Shown here in pieces: positions 34,823 through 42,759 of a DNA stretch of 64,000 nt; position 1 is the first letter of the stretch, and the number at the start of each line of letters is the position of its first letter. The stretch covers positions 1,575,401 through 1,639,400 of the forward strand of contig JAWKIO010000005.1 in assembly GCA_041394265.1 (NCBI GenBank), in the 5' to 3' direction. Position numbers and translations under genes: made by a program. The notes beneath the pieces were generated by a model. The model did not search any database and was not told the DNA's origin. It saw only the letters and a program-made list of their open reading frames with translations. Source of the stretch: Acidimicrobiales bacterium. GTDB lineage: Bacteria > Actinomycetota > Acidimicrobiia > Acidimicrobiales > SZUA-35.

Positions 34823-35431
34823 TCAGAGCATCCGATCCAAGGCGTCGCCGAGTTGGCCCGGGTCGAGGTGGACGCCGCCGACGAGCGTGAGTCCCATGAC
34901 CACGGGCTCGGAACGAGTCCACGCCAGCACCTGCCCTCGACGGTCGGGAACCTCGCTCCACCGAGTGGAGCTGAGCTGGTCGCGCACCAGGAGCGCCAGG
35001 TGGCGAGCGCCAGGGCCATCGAGGTCCTCGAGCCATGGCTGCAGCCATCGGTTCGCCGGCTGGTCGAGGCGGACCAGGGCGGCAAGGACGTCGTGGGCCG
35101 GCGGATCACCCGGTTCGAGCGCCAGGTGGGTTGCCCACCATCGGTCGAGCAGCTCTTCGACCGGTCGTCGGCGTTCGTCGGGCCACGAGGTCCACTCGTG
35201 GGACTCGAGCCGATCGAAGACCGCAACCGCGAGCTCGGGGTCGGCGCCGGGAAGGGTCACCAGCTCGAGCAGACGAGGAAGGCACTCGAGGAACTCACCA
35301 TCGTCGGCGCGCACGAGCACGGCATCGAAGGCCAACTGGGGCAGGAGCGAGTCCGGCGGCGCGAACTCGCGCCACAGCCGTTCGAGCGACGCAGCGATCA
35401 GCTGGTTCCAGCGCGGAGCATCGGCGGTCAC
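34823..35431 (-). CDS. hypothetical protein
   Basis: 202-aa ORF. GTG start overlaps the acpS stop (GTGA). Trp/Leu-rich helical protein with no recognised motif. Confidence 0.5.
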   Translation of the reverse strand: MTADAPRWNQLIAASLERLWREFAPPDSLLPQLAFDAVLVRADDGEFLECLPRLLELVTLPGADPELAVAVFDRLESHEWTSWPDERRRPVEELLDRWWATHLALEPGDPPAHDVLAALVRLDQPANRWLQPWLEDLDGPGARHLALLVRDQLSSTRWSEVPDRRGQVLAWTRSEPVVMGLTLVGGVHLDPGQLGDALDRML

Positions 35432-35886
35432 GACGCCAATCCTGCCACCACTGCGATGGCAATCGTGTCACTGTGCGACAGGGTGAGCAGCCAACCGCCG
35501 ATACCGAGCTCATTCGCCCGGATGGCGGCGCGACCGCTGACGACCAGCGACGGCGCACCCGAGGGTGCCTTCGAAACGGCCATGTCACGAAAGTCGACCC
35601 CACCGAGCCCGACCCCGAGCGCCTTCATCGTCGCCTCCTTGGCCGCGAACCGGGCGGCGAACCGCTCCGCTGGATCACGGGCGGCGAGCGCATAGCGAGA
35701 CTCGTCGTCGGTGTAGACGCGGCGAACGAAGCCGCTACGACTGACCGTGATGCGCCGGATCCGGTCGATCTCGACCACATCGACGCCGATGGAGACGACA
35801 GATCGCCCTATCAACGCTTCGAGGGCGGCAGCTTGAGTGGCTGCCGCCTCGAACCCTGCATCGGCGTCGGTCAGTTCGTGGCCCAT
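35428..35886 (-). CDS. acpS: holo-ACP synthase
   Basis: SIGVDVVEIDRI and FAAKEATMKALG motifs. Start uncertain: ATG 35886 overlaps the glmS-like stop by 16 nt, and TTG 35814 is an alternative. Confidence 0.8.
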   Translation of the reverse strand: MGHELTDADAGFEAAATQAAALEALIGRSVVSIGVDVVEIDRIRRITVSRSGFVRRVYTDDESRYALAARDPAERFAARFAAKEATMKALGVGLGGVDFRDMAVSKAPSGAPSLVVSGRAAIRANELGIGGWLLTLSHSDTIAIAVVAGLAS

Positions 35887-38800
35887 CGTGCTGCAACGGT
35901 ACTGATGGGCGCCGTGAGCAGCTCGACGGTCGGCACCGACCCGAGGAGATCCTCACGGAACGTCGGCTGCGTCTCGGTGACCACGTCGACCAGCTGGCGA
36001 TACCGCTTGTGGTAGCCCTGCAGCACCGAGCGGGCAGTACCGGCGTCGAGACCTTCGTTGACCTTCAGATGGCAGAGCGTGAGGCCGGTGGTCTCGCCGT
36101 CTTTCACCTCAGGCACGATGAGGACCGTGCGACCGTCGGAACCGACCGTGACGATCAGCTCGCGATCGGCCGCCACCCGGTGCTTGGTACCTCGCAACGA
36201 CGGATCGTCGGCCACCCGAGAGCTGAGGTTGGCGGCCAGGCCACCCTTGTCGGCAACGAAGATCTGTGCGCTGTCATCGGGGTCGCCCTCGATCCGGTAG
36301 CGGGTATACCCGGTGACCTCGTCGATCGCCGGGTCGAGGGCCGCCAACGAGCGCAGGGTGCGGTAGCTGAGGCGGTCGCGGGGGCAGCCCGTCGCGAGCA
36401 CGCCCTGGATGAGGTCGGACTGGAGCAGGGACTCGTCGGCACGCGAGATGCCGACGGTGACCGTCTTGGCCTGGTGCTTGATGGCGTCGACCGGACGAGT
36501 GAGTTCCTCGATGCCCTTGGTCAATGCCGCTGCGAGATCCTCGACGACGACACCCGGGGTGCCGACCTTGCCGAACTCCAGCTGATAGGCCTCGAGCGGG
36601 TAGGCCTGCCCGGCGAAACGGAGCAGCGTGGCGACCCGTGTGGCGGTCGAAGCCTCAAGTTGACCGTTGTAGCGCCCGTCGCGCAACAGGGTGAAGAACG
36701 AGGCTGCCTTGGGCTCCAGGTCGTTGGCGAACTGGTTGAACCACTCCTCGCCGGTCGCACCGACGAAGCCCTCGATGATGCCCCGGGCCTCGCGCAGCGG
36801 GCGGGCCGACGCATCGATCGCAAGGGCTGCCTCGTAGCCGAACAAGTGGCCGACCACCGTGGACAACACGAACGCGAGCAGCGGGTGGGTCTCGGGGACG
36901 AAGATCACGTCGAGCGCCCCGTTGAAGCGATTCTCGCCGTCGGTGGCGATGACGATCGGCGCGGCCTTGTGCGCTCGGAAGATCGCGACTTCCTTCGCGA
37001 CGTCGTCGGCGTTCGACCCGACGAGTCCGGCGGCACACACGAGGATCAACGGCTCGGACGACAGATCGATGTGCTTCTTGTCTTCGGTGATGTCGCAGGC
37101 GATGGACTTGTAGCAGAGCTCCGACAGCTTGATGCGAAGCTCGCGTGCCGCAACCGCGTTGGCGCCATTGCCGACCATTGCCCAGTAGCGGCGGCTCGGC
37201 GCGTGCCGATCGGCGGCGGCGGCGATCTCCGGACGCTTGGCGAGCGTGGCAGTCATGGCCGCCGGGAGCGCACGCAGCCCGGCCAACACCGATTGGCGCT
37301 CGGCGGCCGTTCGACCGGTCGCCTTGGTGCCGTCCGACGAACCGGCGCCCATCAGCTGCGACACACCCTCCGCCAGCAAGAAGCCGGCGGCGATCTGGGC
37401 GTAGAACGCCTTGGTGGATGCCACGCTCATCTCGACGTCGCGACCATCGGAGGTGTAGAGAACACCGTCGGACTTGTCGACCAGGTCGCTGCCACGACGG
37501 TTCACGATGGCGAGCACGATGGCGCCGCGTCCGTGCAGGAGGTCGACCGTCCGGTTCGTATCGGTCGTGGTGCCGGATTGGCTGATGGCGACGACGAGCA
37601 CATCGGACATGTCGTCGGCCAGCTGGAAGCCAGAGAGCTCGGTTGCGGTGATGGCCCGGACGGGGATGTTCATCCCCTCGAGCATCCACTCGAACGCAGA
37701 GGCGACGGCTTGGCCGGCGACGGCGGCGGTGCCCTGACCGATCACTTCGACCCGGCGGATCGAGCCGGACCGAAGGCGGGCAGCAACGGCGTCGTTCATG
37801 GTTTCATCGGGCAGACGCACGCTGAGCGTGCCGTCGGTCTCGATCAGACGGCCGCGCAGGGTCTTCGCGAACGAACCCGGCGATTCGGAGATCTCCTTGA
37901 GCAGGAAGTGAGGGGCGTCGCCTCGATCGATGTCACGGGTGGTGACCTCGGGGGTCTTCCACTCGACCTCGTCGACCGGAAGCTCGGTGCCGTCGTACGA
38001 CATGCGGCTCAGCCCGTTGCGATTACCGGCCATGGCGCCGCGGATCCGGATGATCTGCCCCTGGCTTCCCGTGGGGTTGTCGGGATCCGATGGGGTTTCG
38101 CCATCCATCCGCAGGTACAGGCTGGCGTCTTCGACGACGCCGTAGGGCTCGGAGGCGATCACGAACGCGTCTTCGGCCAGGCCGACGAACACACCCTGAC
38201 CCGAGCCACGGAGCGCGAGATGGAGGTCACCGGGCTCGGCCGTGGTCGAGATCCCGATGGCGACCGAGCCCTCGAACTGGGACACGGCCGAACGAACGGC
38301 CTCGTCGAGATCGAGTCCCTCGGCCAGACCGCGGGACACCATCGTGGGGATCACCTTGGCGTCGGTGGTGATCTCACCGGCGATCGCCAACTTCTCGAGG
38401 GCGATGAGGTCGGCGAAGTTGTCGACGTCGCCGTTGAGCGTGGCCGTGACGTAGGGAGCGTCGGTGCTTCCCACCTCGTCGGAGTTGACCGGGTGGGCAT
38501 TTGGCTCGGAGATGATGCCGACCGATGCCCAGCGGGTGTGCCCGAGCACGGTCACCTCGGCCGCCTCGTTGGCCAGCGCAGCAGCGAGCAATTCGTCGGA
38601 TGCGATACCGGCCCGCATCGCCTTGGTGTTGTCGCCAAGTTCGCCGATCTCGGCCGCCGCCTTGTAGACGAGGCTGAGGTGGCCGTCGGGGGTGCGGACG
38701 GCGCCGCTGGTGAAGAGCGGGTCGTTGGCGCGCTCGGTCATCAACGACGCGAACTGGGGATGCTCGAGGTCGAGACCGTGGTGCCGGACGAGCAGGTGAA

Positions 38801-39317
38801 GACCGGCGCTGTCGCGGCCACGTACCTCGAGCCGGTCGAGTGAGCTGAGGGCCTGTTGGATGCTCATGAACGCAGCAATGGCTGCGTCCGATGGTGAGGG
38901 GCCGGCCAGCGCAGCAACTTCGGTCGCCATGCGCAGACGGTCGCGCTCGATCGCCCAAGCACCATCCTTCGCTGCGATCAGTGCGGAGTTGATGGCCTCG
39001 AGATCGTGGTACTCGTGGCCATGGTCGAACAGGTGCTGCTCGATGGTGGCGAGACGATCGCCGATGAGGGCGATGTCGGAGGCGACGGTGGCCGCCAGAC
39101 CCTCATGCTGGAGCAGCGCTCGCAGCCCAGCCTCGCCCCGCAGCAGGTGGTCGACAGCGCCGAGTGCCTCGGCCGCCGAGGTCAGGCGGGCCGCCAGATC
39201 ATCGGCACCGGCCTCGGGAAGCGCCGACGTGGCGGCGGTGACGAGCTGCTGGATCTCGTCGGCCGCAGGGGTTGCCCGCTGGGTTCGACGACGGGCAATG
39301 GCGATGATGCCGCACAC
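35871..39317 (-). CDS. glmS: atypically long (about 1148 aa) glutamine-fructose-6-phosphate aminotransferase-like protein (Ntn GATase plus 2 SIS domains with large insertions)
   Basis: ORF 35871-39395 trimmed to GTG 39317, which precedes Cys (CGIIAI) and lies 9 nt after GAGGAGG. Class-II GATase motifs (RGRDSAG, GHTRWAS), two SIS domains (AISQSGTTTDT, ASTKAF), and a GlmS-like tail motif KTVTVG. In the syntenic glmS position next to glmM. Confidence 0.75.
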   Translation of the reverse strand: MCGIIAIARRRTQRATPAADEIQQLVTAATSALPEAGADDLAARLTSAAEALGAVDHLLRGEAGLRALLQHEGLAATVASDIALIGDRLATIEQHLFDHGHEYHDLEAINSALIAAKDGAWAIERDRLRMATEVAALAGPSPSDAAIAAFMSIQQALSSLDRLEVRGRDSAGLHLLVRHHGLDLEHPQFASLMTERANDPLFTSGAVRTPDGHLSLVYKAAAEIGELGDNTKAMRAGIASDELLAAALANEAAEVTVLGHTRWASVGIISEPNAHPVNSDEVGSTDAPYVTATLNGDVDNFADLIALEKLAIAGEITTDAKVIPTMVSRGLAEGLDLDEAVRSAVSQFEGSVAIGISTTAEPGDLHLALRGSGQGVFVGLAEDAFVIASEPYGVVEDASLYLRMDGETPSDPDNPTGSQGQIIRIRGAMAGNRNGLSRMSYDGTELPVDEVEWKTPEVTTRDIDRGDAPHFLLKEISESPGSFAKTLRGRLIETDGTLSVRLPDETMNDAVAARLRSGSIRRVEVIGQGTAAVAGQAVASAFEWMLEGMNIPVRAITATELSGFQLADDMSDVLVVAISQSGTTTDTNRTVDLLHGRGAIVLAIVNRRGSDLVDKSDGVLYTSDGRDVEMSVASTKAFYAQIAAGFLLAEGVSQLMGAGSSDGTKATGRTAAERQSVLAGLRALPAAMTATLAKRPEIAAAADRHAPSRRYWAMVGNGANAVAARELRIKLSELCYKSIACDITEDKKHIDLSSEPLILVCAAGLVGSNADDVAKEVAIFRAHKAAPIVIATDGENRFNGALDVIFVPETHPLLAFVLSTVVGHLFGYEAALAIDASARPLREARGIIEGFVGATGEEWFNQFANDLEPKAASFFTLLRDGRYNGQLEASTATRVATLLRFAGQAYPLEAYQLEFGKVGTPGVVVEDLAAALTKGIEELTRPVDAIKHQAKTVTVGISRADESLLQSDLIQGVLATGCPRDRLSYRTLRSLAALDPAIDEVTGYTRYRIEGDPDDSAQIFVADKGGLAANLSSRVADDPSLRGTKHRVAADRELIVTVGSDGRTVLIVPEVKDGETTGLTLCHLKVNEGLDAGTARSVLQGYHKRYRQLVDVVTETQPTFREDLLGSVPTVELLTAPISTVAARWATN

Positions 39318-39418
39318 AGAAATCGGCCTCCTCAATAGGGTCCGTACCCAGTATGGATCGGCTGATCTTCCCTGCCCCTGAGTCGATGTAGGCAATCGGC
39401 CTCATCGGGGCGGCGAGT

Positions 39419-40765
39419 TCATCCTCCGGTAACGAACGACTGGGTGGTTTGCACCAGTTGGGCGCAGATCCGTTCCGCAGTTGCCGCATCGAGATGTTCG
39501 ACCATGACGCGAATGAGCGGCTCGGTGCCCGATGCTCGCACCAGCACTCGACCCTGCGTTCCCAGCTCCGCCTCCGCCGCCTCGATGTGCGGCGAGAGCT
39601 TGGCGAGCAGCTCAGGGTCGCGTGCGGGGAGCCGGACGTTCTTGAGAACCTGCGGGACCGTACTCATGGCGTTCGAGGCCAGCTCGGCAAGCGACGACCC
39701 CGACCGCACGACGGCATCGGCAAGCTGGGCCGCCGCCAGTACGCCATCGCCGGTCGTGGCAAGATCCCGGCAGATCACGTGACCCGATTGCTCACCACCG
39801 AGCGAGAAGTTGCCGGCGTCGAGCTCGGCCAGCACGTAGCGGTCACCGACGCCGGTCTGGCGTACCTCGATGCCCGCCTCACGCATCGCAAGGTGGAGTC
39901 CGAGATTGCTCATGACCGTGACGACGAGGGTGTTGTGGCGCAAACGCCCGCTCGCGGCCCAATCGTTGGCGAGAATGGCCAAGATGTGGTCGCCATCGAC
40001 GATGGCGCCGGTGTGATCGACGGCGATGAGGCGATCGGCATCGCCGTCGAAGGCGAGCCCCATGTCGGCCGAGTGCTCGACGACCGCCGCCTGCAGCGCC
40101 GCCGGGCTGGTCGAGCCACGTTCGAGGTTGATGTTCAAACCATCCGGCTCGTTTCCGATCACCGTGACGTGAGCACCAAGCTCTTCGAAGACCATTGGCC
40201 CCACGATGCTCGCCGCGCCGTTCGCACCGTCGAGCACGACCCGAGCGCCGTCGAGCTTGCGCCCGCCCAGCGACTCGACGACCGAATGGACCCAGTCGTC
40301 GCATGGATCGTGCGAGGTGATCTCGCCGACTCCAGCACCGGTGGGTGCCGCCGTGGTGTTCGCACCGTCGGTGAGGATGGCGTGGAACCGGGCTTGGATG
40401 TCGGCTTCGGCCGCGTCGGACAACTTGATGCCGCCGGCGGCGAAGAGCTTGATGCCGTTGTCGGCGAAGGGATTGTGCGACGCCGAGATCATGGCGCCGG
40501 GCAACTGCCGCTCGGCGCAGACCCAGGCCACGGTGGGCGTCGGCACCACGCCCAACAACTCGACCGATGCGCCACTGGCCGCCAGCCCTGCCGCCAGCGC
40601 GGCTTCGAGCATCGGCCCCGACCGGCGGGGGTCACGGCCGATCACGAACGTGTCGCCGCCCAAAACGCCAGCGGCGGCACGGCCGAGGGCCAGTGCCACC
40701 TCTGGGGTCAGATCAGTATTGGCGACTCCACGTACCCCATCGGTACCGAACGACGGAAGCACCAT
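39419..40765 (-). CDS. glmM: phosphoglucosamine mutase
   Basis: 448 aa with FGTDGVRG and the active-site motif ISASHNPFADNG. Confidence 0.95.
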   Translation of the reverse strand: MVLPSFGTDGVRGVANTDLTPEVALALGRAAAGVLGGDTFVIGRDPRRSGPMLEAALAAGLAASGASVELLGVVPTPTVAWVCAERQLPGAMISASHNPFADNGIKLFAAGGIKLSDAAEADIQARFHAILTDGANTTAAPTGAGVGEITSHDPCDDWVHSVVESLGGRKLDGARVVLDGANGAASIVGPMVFEELGAHVTVIGNEPDGLNINLERGSTSPAALQAAVVEHSADMGLAFDGDADRLIAVDHTGAIVDGDHILAILANDWAASGRLRHNTLVVTVMSNLGLHLAMREAGIEVRQTGVGDRYVLAELDAGNFSLGGEQSGHVICRDLATTGDGVLAAAQLADAVVRSGSSLAELASNAMSTVPQVLKNVRLPARDPELLAKLSPHIEAAEAELGTQGRVLVRASGTEPLIRVMVEHLDAATAERICAQLVQTTQSFVTGG

Positions 40766-40780
40766 CGGAGCGAGCGCAGC

Positions 40781-41170
40781 TCAGCGCTTGGAGTACTGCG
40801 GCGCCTTACGGGCCTTCTTGAGGCCGTACTTCTTCGATTCCTTCTTGCGGGGATCACGGGTGAGCAGGCCTTCGGCCTTCACCGCGGTGCGGCATTCCGG
40901 GTCGAGGGAGATCAGCGCACGAGCGATGCCGAGGCGGAAGGCGCCAGCCTGACCCGAGAGACCACCACCATCGAGGGTGACGTCGATGTCGTAGGCCTCT
41001 TCGGTCTCGGTGACCCGCAGGGGCTCGGTGATGAGCCGGCGGTGCACCGCAGAGGGGAAGTAGTCATCGAACGCCCGGCCATTGGCGGTGATCGTGCCGC
41101 TACCGGCGGACACACGAACACGAGCGACAGCCTGCTTGCGCCGGCCGGTGGTCTGGATCAAAGAAGCCAT
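40781..41170 (-). CDS. rpsI: 30S ribosomal protein S9
   Basis: 129 aa, [11 protein letters not shown]... ending [12 protein letters not shown]. Confidence 0.97.
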
Positions 41171-41174
41171 GGTG

Positions 41175-41627
41175 TCACTTCACCTCTCGGCGTGCGCCGG
41201 GAATCTCGAGAACGGTCGGCGACTGGGCGCCGTGGGGGTGCTCCGGGCCTGCGTAGACCTTGAGCTTGGTGGCCATCTGGCTACCGAGCCGGTTCTTCGG
41301 CAGCATGCCGGTGATCGACTTACGGACCGTGTCGGCCGGGCGCTTGCCCAGCGACTCGGCATAGCTCAGCGAGGTGAGACCACCCGGATAGCCGGAGTGA
41401 CGGTGCACCTGCTTCTTCGACGCCTTGTCGGAGGTGAGCACGATCTTCGAAGCATTGACGACGATCACGTGATCGCCCATGTCCATGTGGGGGGCGAAGG
41501 TCGGCTTGTGCTTCCCCCGCAGGATGCGAGCGACCTCGGTGGCCATACGACCGAGGGTCATACCCTCGGCATCGACCACGAACCACTGGCGGTCGATCTC
41601 GGATTTCTTCGGTGAGTACGTCTTCAC
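41175..41627 (-). CDS. rplM: 50S ribosomal protein L13
   Basis: ORF trimmed to GTG 41627 ([20 protein letters not shown]...). Confidence 0.93.
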
Positions 41628-41699
41628 GGGGTACCTGCAGTCTTGACAGCAAAAGCCGGGCCGAAACAGCCGAAGAGCAAGCATAGGGTCGCGCGCTGC

Positions 41700-41929
41700 C
41701 CGTCCCAACCGTGCTATGTCCCTTTCGACCGACTTCGTCGATCGGGCCGCCGGCCACCCAAGTCAAACGCCCGAAACGGCGCTCCTCCGTCGCAACCGTG
41801 CAACACCTCAGCCGCTTTCGACCGACTTCGTCGATCGGGCCGCCGGCCACCCAAGTCAAACGCCCGAAACGGCGCTCCTCCGTCGCAACCGTGCAACAGC
41901 GAGCCCATTCGACCGACTTCGTCGATCGG
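41700..41929. repeat. tandem direct repeat (two identical 83-nt units with flanking partial copies, period 91-93 nt)
   Basis: Units 41723-41805 and 41816-41898 are identical by eye. A partial copy lies at 41908-41929 and a degenerate unit tail at 41700-41716. Each unit contains an 8-bp hairpin with a GAA triloop. Confidence 0.9.
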
Positions 41930-41934
41930 ATCGT

Positions 41935-42759
41935 TCAGGAGCGGGCGAACGGGTCGTCGGGATAGACGACCGACCACAGGGTGAGACCGTGGGGCGGTGC
42001 AGGAGAGACCGCAGCGTTGCGATCGCGGGCAGCCAACACGCCGAGCAGCTCGCCGGCCGACCGGCGCCCCTTGCCGACGGCCACGTGGAAACCGACGATG
42101 CTGCGGACCATCTGATGACAGAACGCCGATCCGTCGATCTCGAAGCGAAGGACACCGTCGCCGAGGTCGGTCCAATGGGCCCGGGTCACACGACGCACGA
42201 GTGACACCTCGGTGCCATCGTCGCTCTTCGGCCGGCGGCAGAACGACGCGAAGTCGTGCTCTCCGATGATCGGGTCGCAAGCCAGACGCATCGAGGCCAC
42301 GTTCAGCGGCTCGGGCACCCACCACATCGTGTCGGCGTGGAACGGGCTCGGGTGCTCGGTGTTCAGGACATAGAAGCGGTAGCTGCGTCCGGTCGCAGAG
42401 AACCGAGCGCTGAAGTCGTCGGACACCAGCCGGGCGTCTCGGCACACGACCTCCGGTTGGAGCCCCACGTTGATCACCCGAGTGATTCGCTCGGGGTCGG
42501 CTTTGGCCTCGGGAACGTCGAGAGAGAGCACCTGACCCCAGGCGTGGACGCCGGCGTCGGTACGGCCCGACATCACGATGTCGGGGTGATAGCCGAGGAA
42601 CGGACGCAGGGTGTCGGCGATCTCGCCGACGACGGTGCGGACGCCGGCATTCGGCGCCAGCCCACGGAAACGTCCGCCGTGGTAGGCGATCAGCAGCGCA
42701 ACGCGAACGAGCGGACCCTGAGGTCCGCTCGTTTCGGGAAAGAGACTCAGCGTTTCCAC
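41935..42759 (-). CDS. truA: tRNA pseudouridine(38-40) synthase
   Basis: 274 aa with LIAYHGGRFRG and the catalytic GRTDAGVHA motif. Confidence 0.92.
   Translation of the reverse strand: METLSLFPETSGPQGPLVRVALLIAYHGGRFRGLAPNAGVRTVVGEIADTLRPFLGYHPDIVMSGRTDAGVHAWGQVLSLDVPEAKADPERITRVINVGLQPEVVCRDARLVSDDFSARFSATGRSYRFYVLNTEHPSPFHADTMWWVPEPLNVASMRLACDPIIGEHDFASFCRRPKSDDGTEVSLVRRVTRAHWTDLGDGVLRFEIDGSAFCHQMVRSIVGFHVAVGKGRRSAGELLGVLAARDRNAAVSPAPPHGLTLWSVVYPDDPFARS

Follow-up and report, generated by a model that had tools for sequence, protein, structure and literature searches.

Glucosamine-6-phosphate synthase (GlmS) catalyses the committed step towards amino sugars and cell-wall precursors, a step under tight regulation, and is a long-studied enzyme and drug target. 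The canonical enzyme (Escherichia coli, 609 amino acids (aa); PDB 1jxa, 2j6h and 4amv; models TIGR01135 and NF001484) consists of a class-II glutaminase with an N-terminal nucleophile (Ntn) cysteine, two SIS domains and a K(S/T)VTV tail that ends the protein. In ordinary GlmS, as the E. coli structures show, this free C-terminal tail becomes ordered above the sugar site; it contributes the Schiff-base lysine and helps to seal the ammonia channel. The human counterpart GFAT-1 (about 680-700 aa; PDB 6r4e and 6svq) is likewise a GlmS enlarged by inserts and is under built-in allosteric feedback by UDP-N-acetylglucosamine (UDP-GlcNAc); however, its inserts are short loops only, its C-terminal tail is free, and it has neither helical modules nor a C-terminal sensor-like domain. 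The gene considered here encodes a GlmS-like protein of 1148 aa and lies in a 64,000-nucleotide (nt) stretch of an Acidimicrobiales bacterium (GenBank assembly GCA_041394265.1, contig JAWKIO010000005.1, positions 1,575,401 to 1,639,400), which as a whole is referred to as the window. It shares with canonical GlmS the Ntn cysteine, the class-II glutaminase, the two SIS domains, the equivalents of the catalytic residues, the adjacency to glmM and the single copy per genome; canonical GlmS is about half as long, only the long form adds 140-aa and 105-aa helical inserts, its tail is internal, with a 192-aa domain behind it, and the identity between the two is just 27-31%. L-GDH180 of Mycobacterium smegmatis (PDB 7jsr), like the long GlmS, is a greatly enlarged form of an enzyme central to nitrogen metabolism; it carries ACT-like and PAS-type sensor domains, and its oligomer interfaces are formed by the N- and C-terminal extra domains (PMC8175468), although its catalytic core is unrelated and its sensor domains are N-terminal.

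The protein is probably the organism's only GlmS (EC 2.6.1.16) and belongs to an old monophyletic class of long forms with four added modules. Its parts are laid out in the window as follows.

35871 to 39317, minus strand: long-form glmS open reading frame (ORF), 1148 aa plus stop, from the ORF call and full-length homologues
39285 to 39317, minus strand: fMet-Cys2 Ntn nucleophile (E. coli Cys1) and first beta-strand, residues 1-11
38865 to 39284, minus strand: insert A, helical module, residues 12-151, with an AlphaFold2 predicted local distance difference test (pLDDT) score of about 90
38106 to 38864, minus strand: class-II glutaminase core, residues 152-404, including insert B and a 15-aa insert
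37923 to 38105, minus strand: inter-domain linker, residues 405-465, with an extension of about 19 aa relative to E. coli
37353 to 37922, minus strand: SIS subdomain 1, residues 466-655, with S579-Q-S-G-T-T584 and S634-T-K636
36786 to 37313, minus strand: SIS subdomain 2, residues 669-844, with K730, E733 (E. coli E488) and H749 (H504)
36498 to 36785, minus strand: insert F, helical module between SIS subdomain 2 and the active-site tail, residues 845-940
36441 to 36497, minus strand: internalised C-tail motif RPVDAIKHQAKTVTVGISR, residues 941-959, in which K951 corresponds to E. coli K603
35874 to 36440, minus strand: C-terminal alpha/beta domain (C-domain), residues 960-1148, with a GAF/PAS-like predicted fold

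The core is recognisable at both the sequence and the structure level. Pfam places SIS at residues 521-649 (62 bits) and, when the N-terminal part is scanned alone, GATase_6 at residues 256-390; the NCBIfam glmS models align over residues 243-834, and the E. coli GlmS structures align within residues 231-833, thereby covering both SIS halves. The best PDB relatives by sequence are E. coli GlmS and human GFAT-1, the similarity to the latter being restricted to the isomerase half. A whole-protein AlphaFold2 model (mean pLDDT 79.8, predicted template-modelling score (pTM) 0.72) matched GFAT-1 and GlmS in Foldseek at E about 1e-22 to 1e-23, with GFAT-1 on top (E about 3e-23). The long form was further aligned (MAFFT) with E. 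coli K-12 GlmS, six canonical Acidimicrobiia GlmS and twelve diverse long forms, and residue conservation was judged across 12-33 diverse long forms. The tested glutaminase-side residues of E. coli are all conserved (Cys1, Arg26, Arg73, Trp74, His86, Asn98, Gly99 and Asp123), as are the isomerase residues Thr302, Ser347-Gln-Ser349, Thr352, Ser401, Lys403, Lys485, Glu488, His504 and Lys603. In the numbering of the long form, Cys2 is invariant in 33 diverse members; R166 (E. coli R26), R262-W263 (R73-W74), N295-G296 (N98-G99) and D319 (D123) are kept in all aligned long forms; and S579-T584, K730, E733 and H749 are invariant among them. Substitutions relative to E. coli include Thr76 to Ser and Ser303 to Ala, the alanine also occurring in some canonical sequences. 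Because the catalytic residues are conserved, canonical GlmS chemistry is expected, and glucosamine 6-phosphate (GlcN6P) synthase activity is very likely.

The most conserved segment of all is the tail motif RPVDAIKHQAKTVTVGISR, which is 97% conserved in close relatives and 85-89% in distant ones. K951 and KTVTV are invariant, yet the motif is internal: the position of the terminal Glu608 of E. coli is occupied by Gly956, and 192 more residues follow. In other bacteria the tail is encoded at the 3' end of glmS, in a region that serves as the recognition site for attTn7 targeting; here the tail-coding DNA (window 36441-36497) is internal, and a Tn7-type insertion placed relative to the tail would be expected to hit the ORF.

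The genome (5.7 Mb, 96.6% complete) yielded no canonical glmS in a search with the glmS model; the long form itself scored 192.9 bits in the six-frame search, and the only other match, considered as a possible second GlmS, reads as PurF by its motifs. Among 151 genomes of the class, 84 encode a canonical GlmS (>440 bits, about 610 aa) and about 64 encode the long form only (195-235 bits, open frames of 1100-1290 aa), while none encodes both; a sample of the phylum showed the same mutual exclusivity. Furthermore, the order rplM-rpsI-glmM-long glmS-acpS-nnr-alr recurs in about 80 long-form loci, and in Acidimicrobiia with a canonical GlmS that gene occupies the same slot. The genome also encodes NagB and a GlmU-like gene in addition to the adjacent glmM. 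The best GlmU-like gene (G000:C5:463575-464615) scores 193.6 bits against a cut-off of 366.85 over model positions 2-344 of 452, and GlmU may be divergent in this genome too.

The MAFFT alignment delimits the additions. Insert A (residues 12-151, 140 aa) follows the first strand, insert B spans residues 177-210 (34 aa), two small inserts occupy residues 234-248 (15 aa) and 663-672 (10 aa), insert F (residues 845-949, 105 aa) precedes the KTVTVG tail, and the extra C-terminal sequence (residues 956-1147, 192 aa) lies beyond it. Inserts A and F are high-confidence helices in the AlphaFold2 model, in which the C-terminal part forms a compact alpha/beta domain. Insert A is the least conserved module, although D118 is invariant and W121 nearly so; it has no Pfam relatives, and a profile search of PDB matched only designed helical bundles. 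With separate pieces of the protein, Pfam gave no module family, and the module searches returned only matches attributable to chance or composition (Der GTPase, designed helical bundles). Even in members with as little as 31% identity all modules are kept and gaps are few; the homologues measure 1100-1260 aa.

Much of this had been anticipated by the sequence-only reading of the locus. Its account of the ORF (35871-39317, 1148 aa, fMet-Cys start, GAGGAGG) is borne out by the sequence, its position between glmM and acpS is indeed the canonical one, being the slot shared with canonical-GlmS Acidimicrobiia, and the class-II glutaminase motifs and two SIS domains that it listed were recovered by Pfam, the glmS models and the E. 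coli alignment. The 130-140 helical residues placed after the catalytic cysteine correspond to the 140 aa of insert A; the further insertions noted before SIS subdomain 1 are those of 34 aa and 15 aa together with the longer linker; and the roughly 300 residues after the second SIS domain resolve into 105 aa before KTVTVG and 192 aa after it.

The C-domain, folded alone with 79 sequences, gave a confident model (pLDDT 94.7, pTM 0.90) with the predicted topology helix, beta1-beta2, helices, beta3-beta4-beta5 and C-terminal helices. In a Foldseek search of PDB, about 40 of the top 50 neighbours were GAF, PAS or Cache sensor domains, the GAF neighbours including PDE5/6, NifA-like activators (Nlh1/2), PtsP/EI-Ntr and bacteriophytochromes. 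GAF domains share the predicted topology, but at TM-scores of only 0.25-0.45 and with no significant Pfam GAF match. The best structural neighbour is L-GDH180 (E 6e-4, TMq 0.50), a similarity at the level of the fold only (14-15% identity), for which Foldseek does not specify the matched part of 7jsr. A profile search of PDB with the C-domain returned nothing below E = 0.67. Since the fold matches are consistent but weak and no sequence-level match was obtained, the domain appears, weakly, to be GAF/PAS-like in predicted fold without being a member of those families. Positions conserved across Acidimicrobiia are R24, G47, Y51, G70, K89, R107 and R149 (A3 numbering).

A stand-alone protein made of the C-domain was also considered and rejected, the 120 best short matches being pieces of long GlmS. 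Two short matches on long contigs were inspected and proved to be genes split by frameshifts in long-read metagenome-assembled genomes (MAGs). On two such contigs from ENA (L130 and L131) the long glmS is called as two or three ORFs, for example of 424 + 410 + 198 aa; these splits look like assembly frameshift errors that give rise to spurious 'stand-alone' C-domain proteins in the databases. Separately, an isolated 73-codon open frame (G034:C19:142634-142843) matches positions 122-191 of the C-domain profile and lies on another contig than the full gene of the same genome.

The long form is widespread. At least 598 species genomes encode it, and an exhaustive search over representatives clustered at 50% identity gave 947 clusters at E < 1e-30. 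The best 80 species genomes are all Acidimicrobiia (including Aquihabitans, Ferrithrix, Iamia, IMCC26207, Microthrixaceae and Ilumatobacteraceae), and full-length members extend down to about 31-35% identity. Beyond Actinomycetota, the long form occurs in Desulfobacterota, Myxococcota, Pseudomonadota and Acidobacteriota, with named members in Thermoanaerobaculia, Desulfomonile/Desulfomonilaceae, Polyangiaceae, Magnetospirillum, Competibacteraceae and Pseudodesulfovibrio. The complete genome of Pseudodesulfovibrio cashew, one Competibacteraceae MAG and one Desulfomonile MAG each contain no full-length GlmS homologue besides the long form. In a maximum-likelihood tree the long forms make up one clade (Shimodaira-Hasegawa-like approximate likelihood ratio 100), set apart by a stem of about 2 substitutions per site. 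This clade falls outside the canonical Actinomycetota sequences, among them four of the six canonical Acidimicrobiia; the attachment point of the clade is unresolved and long-branch effects are possible. A recent in situ origin from a neighbouring canonical Acidimicrobiia GlmS is unsupported, given this position, and the phylogeny points to an old class rather than a recent local elaboration. The confinement to this lineage suggested by the sequence-only reading thus gives way to a deep, multi-phylum family.

Pseudodesulfovibrio also provides a natural deletion. Its proteins of about 940 aa keep inserts A and F and end three residues past KTVTVGISR (about 6 past KTVTVG). They form a single clade within the 1140-aa forms (support 99-100), so that their lack of the C-domain is a loss. 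Since this loss coincides, at least in P. cashew, with the status of sole GlmS, the C-domain is, as judged from these comparisons, dispensable for catalysis, in keeping with an accessory role. Whether it is regulatory is finely balanced, with the estimate falling just short of even.

A working mechanism can be proposed on this basis. Cys2 would hydrolyse glutamine, the ammonia would cross the Trp263 gate to the isomerase site, and Lys951 (as the Schiff base), Glu733 and His749 would convert fructose-6-phosphate to GlcN6P. The helical modules (residues 12-151 and 845-940) probably serve as a structural or oligomerisation scaffold. The tail is tethered at either end, with helical module F ahead of it and the sensor-like domain behind it, so that ligand binding to the C-domain, or a conformational change in it, could control closure of the tail over the sugar site. 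The result would be built-in allosteric control by a small molecule, for which UDP-GlcNAc, GlcN6P, glutamine/2-oxoglutarate or a cyclic nucleotide are candidates. The fullest version of this proposal, namely that the long form is a second ancient GlmS class that displaced the canonical one in parts of at least four phyla and whose GAF/PAS-like domain senses a metabolite and gates the tail, is put forward tentatively and as somewhat more doubtful than not. A substitution of the long form for GlmR/YvcK was also considered and rejected, as TIGR01826 is present here and in many long-form families; the model is missing from some families of both GlmS types. Among 25 sampled genomes of two long-form families of the window's order (f2 and f3), none gave a YvcK/GlmR (TIGR01826) match, whereas most of the other families did.

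Several observations weigh against assigning the protein to GlmS with a sensory C-domain. Its scores fall under the curated cut-offs (TIGR01135, 200.9 against 418 bits; NF001484, 218.1 against 381 bits); E. coli His77 is replaced by V, I, N or T in long forms, and the terminal Glu608 carboxylate is missing from them; AlphaFold2 models the tail (948-961) and the catalytic loop (732-767) with low confidence; working in reverse, NagB could in principle provide GlcN6P; and completeness is unknown for the MAGs behind the sole-copy status outside the class. As regards the C-domain, the Foldseek matches are weak (E 6e-4 to 1e-2, TM 0.25-0.5), and the Pfam GAF/PAS match was significant in none of the 79 C-domains, the best being GAF_3 at E = 0.11 in one member. 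The sub-threshold scores, together with the low identity to canonical GlmS, the long stem and the location of the P. cashew gene beside manC and exosortase/exopolysaccharide genes, would suit a neofunctionalised amidotransferase-isomerase that uses a different ketose phosphate or produces a different amino sugar, such as one for exopolysaccharide, instead of housekeeping GlcN6P. This was the second of the two explanations offered by the sequence-only reading, and it is now considered highly improbable: the sugar-phosphate and catalytic residues are invariant, no other GlmS was found either here or in the three genomes checked from other phyla, exclusivity with canonical GlmS is strict across the 151 genomes, and the gene is linked to glmM both here and in P. 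cashew. As GlmM is encoded, these organisms need GlcN6P. The same invariant residues, sole copy, exclusivity and slot support the first explanation, a GlmS with extra modules.

A more serious rival to the sensory role, and one compatible with it, holds that the extra modules are purely architectural, mediating oligomerisation or docking to GlmM, GlmU or cell-wall synthesis complexes without ligand sensing, the GAF/PAS-like domain then serving for dimerisation or protein binding. Inserts A and F are indeed generic helical bundles without identifiable homologues, GAF and PAS domains often dimerise, the extra terminal domains of L-GDH180 form oligomer interfaces (PMC8175468), and the C-domain is lost in places while the gene stays. 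However, the C-domain contains conserved Arg/Lys and Gly residues compatible with an anionic-ligand pocket, and its place immediately behind the mobile catalytic tail hints at coupling with catalysis; a purely architectural role is rated as unlikely. An artefact, in which genes were fused by a sequencing or assembly error or the wrong start codon was chosen, has a negligible chance of being correct; the fusion by sequencing error that had been flagged as the outcome that would overturn the interpretation is refuted. The same architecture of 1100-1260 aa is present in hundreds of independent assemblies, complete genomes among them, the matches contain no internal stops, and the MCG start is conserved; error-prone long-read MAGs show the opposite, the gene being split into three ORFs.

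The start of the gene and its surroundings are consistent with the favoured assignment to GlmS, and the following elements flank it.

39327 to 39333, minus strand: Shine-Dalgarno sequence GAGGAGG, 9 nt upstream of the GTG start
39419 to 40765, minus strand: glmM, the upstream neighbour
35428 to 35886, minus strand: acpS, the downstream neighbour, whose start overlaps the glmS stop by 16 nt

The start codon is GTG (39317-39315), followed by TGC (Cys), which yields fMet-Cys2. An in-frame TTG lies further upstream; as a start there would bury the cysteine and the homologues open with MCG, the GTG is the right start. The spacer between glmM and glmS measures 101 nt, the local order is rplM-rpsI-glmM-glmS-acpS-nnr-alr, and neither a glmS ribozyme nor another known RNA element was found in 35000-42500 of the window. 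An ORF of 202 aa (34823-35431, minus strand) lies between acpS and nnr; among the fetched loci its detectable homologues are confined to the closest relatives, and acpS directly adjoins nnr in most other long-form loci, which lack this ORF. At 41700-41930 of the window the same peptide strings recur in ORFs of both strands, for example WVAGGPIDEVGRK twice, because the DNA between truA and rplM contains a perfect tandem duplication. In the P. cashew locus (CP046400.1, 731238-746063), the genes ahead of the 941-aa GlmS are those of a GAF histidine kinase and a sigma-54 response regulator, a glmM-like phosphoglucomutase/phosphomannomutase gene and manC; it is followed by exosortase EpsH/EpsI, a polysaccharide deacetylase and glycosyltransferases, an exopolysaccharide-type neighbourhood.

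Literature searches returned no description of the long-form architecture, and database names are automatic (GlmS, or 'SIS domain-containing protein' from the Prokaryotic Genome Annotation Pipeline). Of the suggestion that such forms might prove common and already characterised, the first half therefore stands and the second does not: long-form GlmS is common in nature and apparently uncharacterised. Since the curated glmS hidden Markov models miss it, metabolic reconstructions can wrongly report GlmS as absent. Abundant environmental lineages, namely marine and freshwater Acidimicrobiia, Microthrixaceae, Ilumatobacteraceae, Desulfomonile, Pseudodesulfovibrio and Competibacteraceae, have the long form as their sole GlmS. 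Control of the C-tail and of the ammonia channel can be studied in it as a natural system. If the sensory proposal is true, these organisms would possess a protein-level feedback device in place of the glmS ribozyme, GlmY/GlmZ-RapZ, GlmR or EIIA-Ntr. The long form may also reveal a new feedback route on UDP-GlcNAc synthesis.

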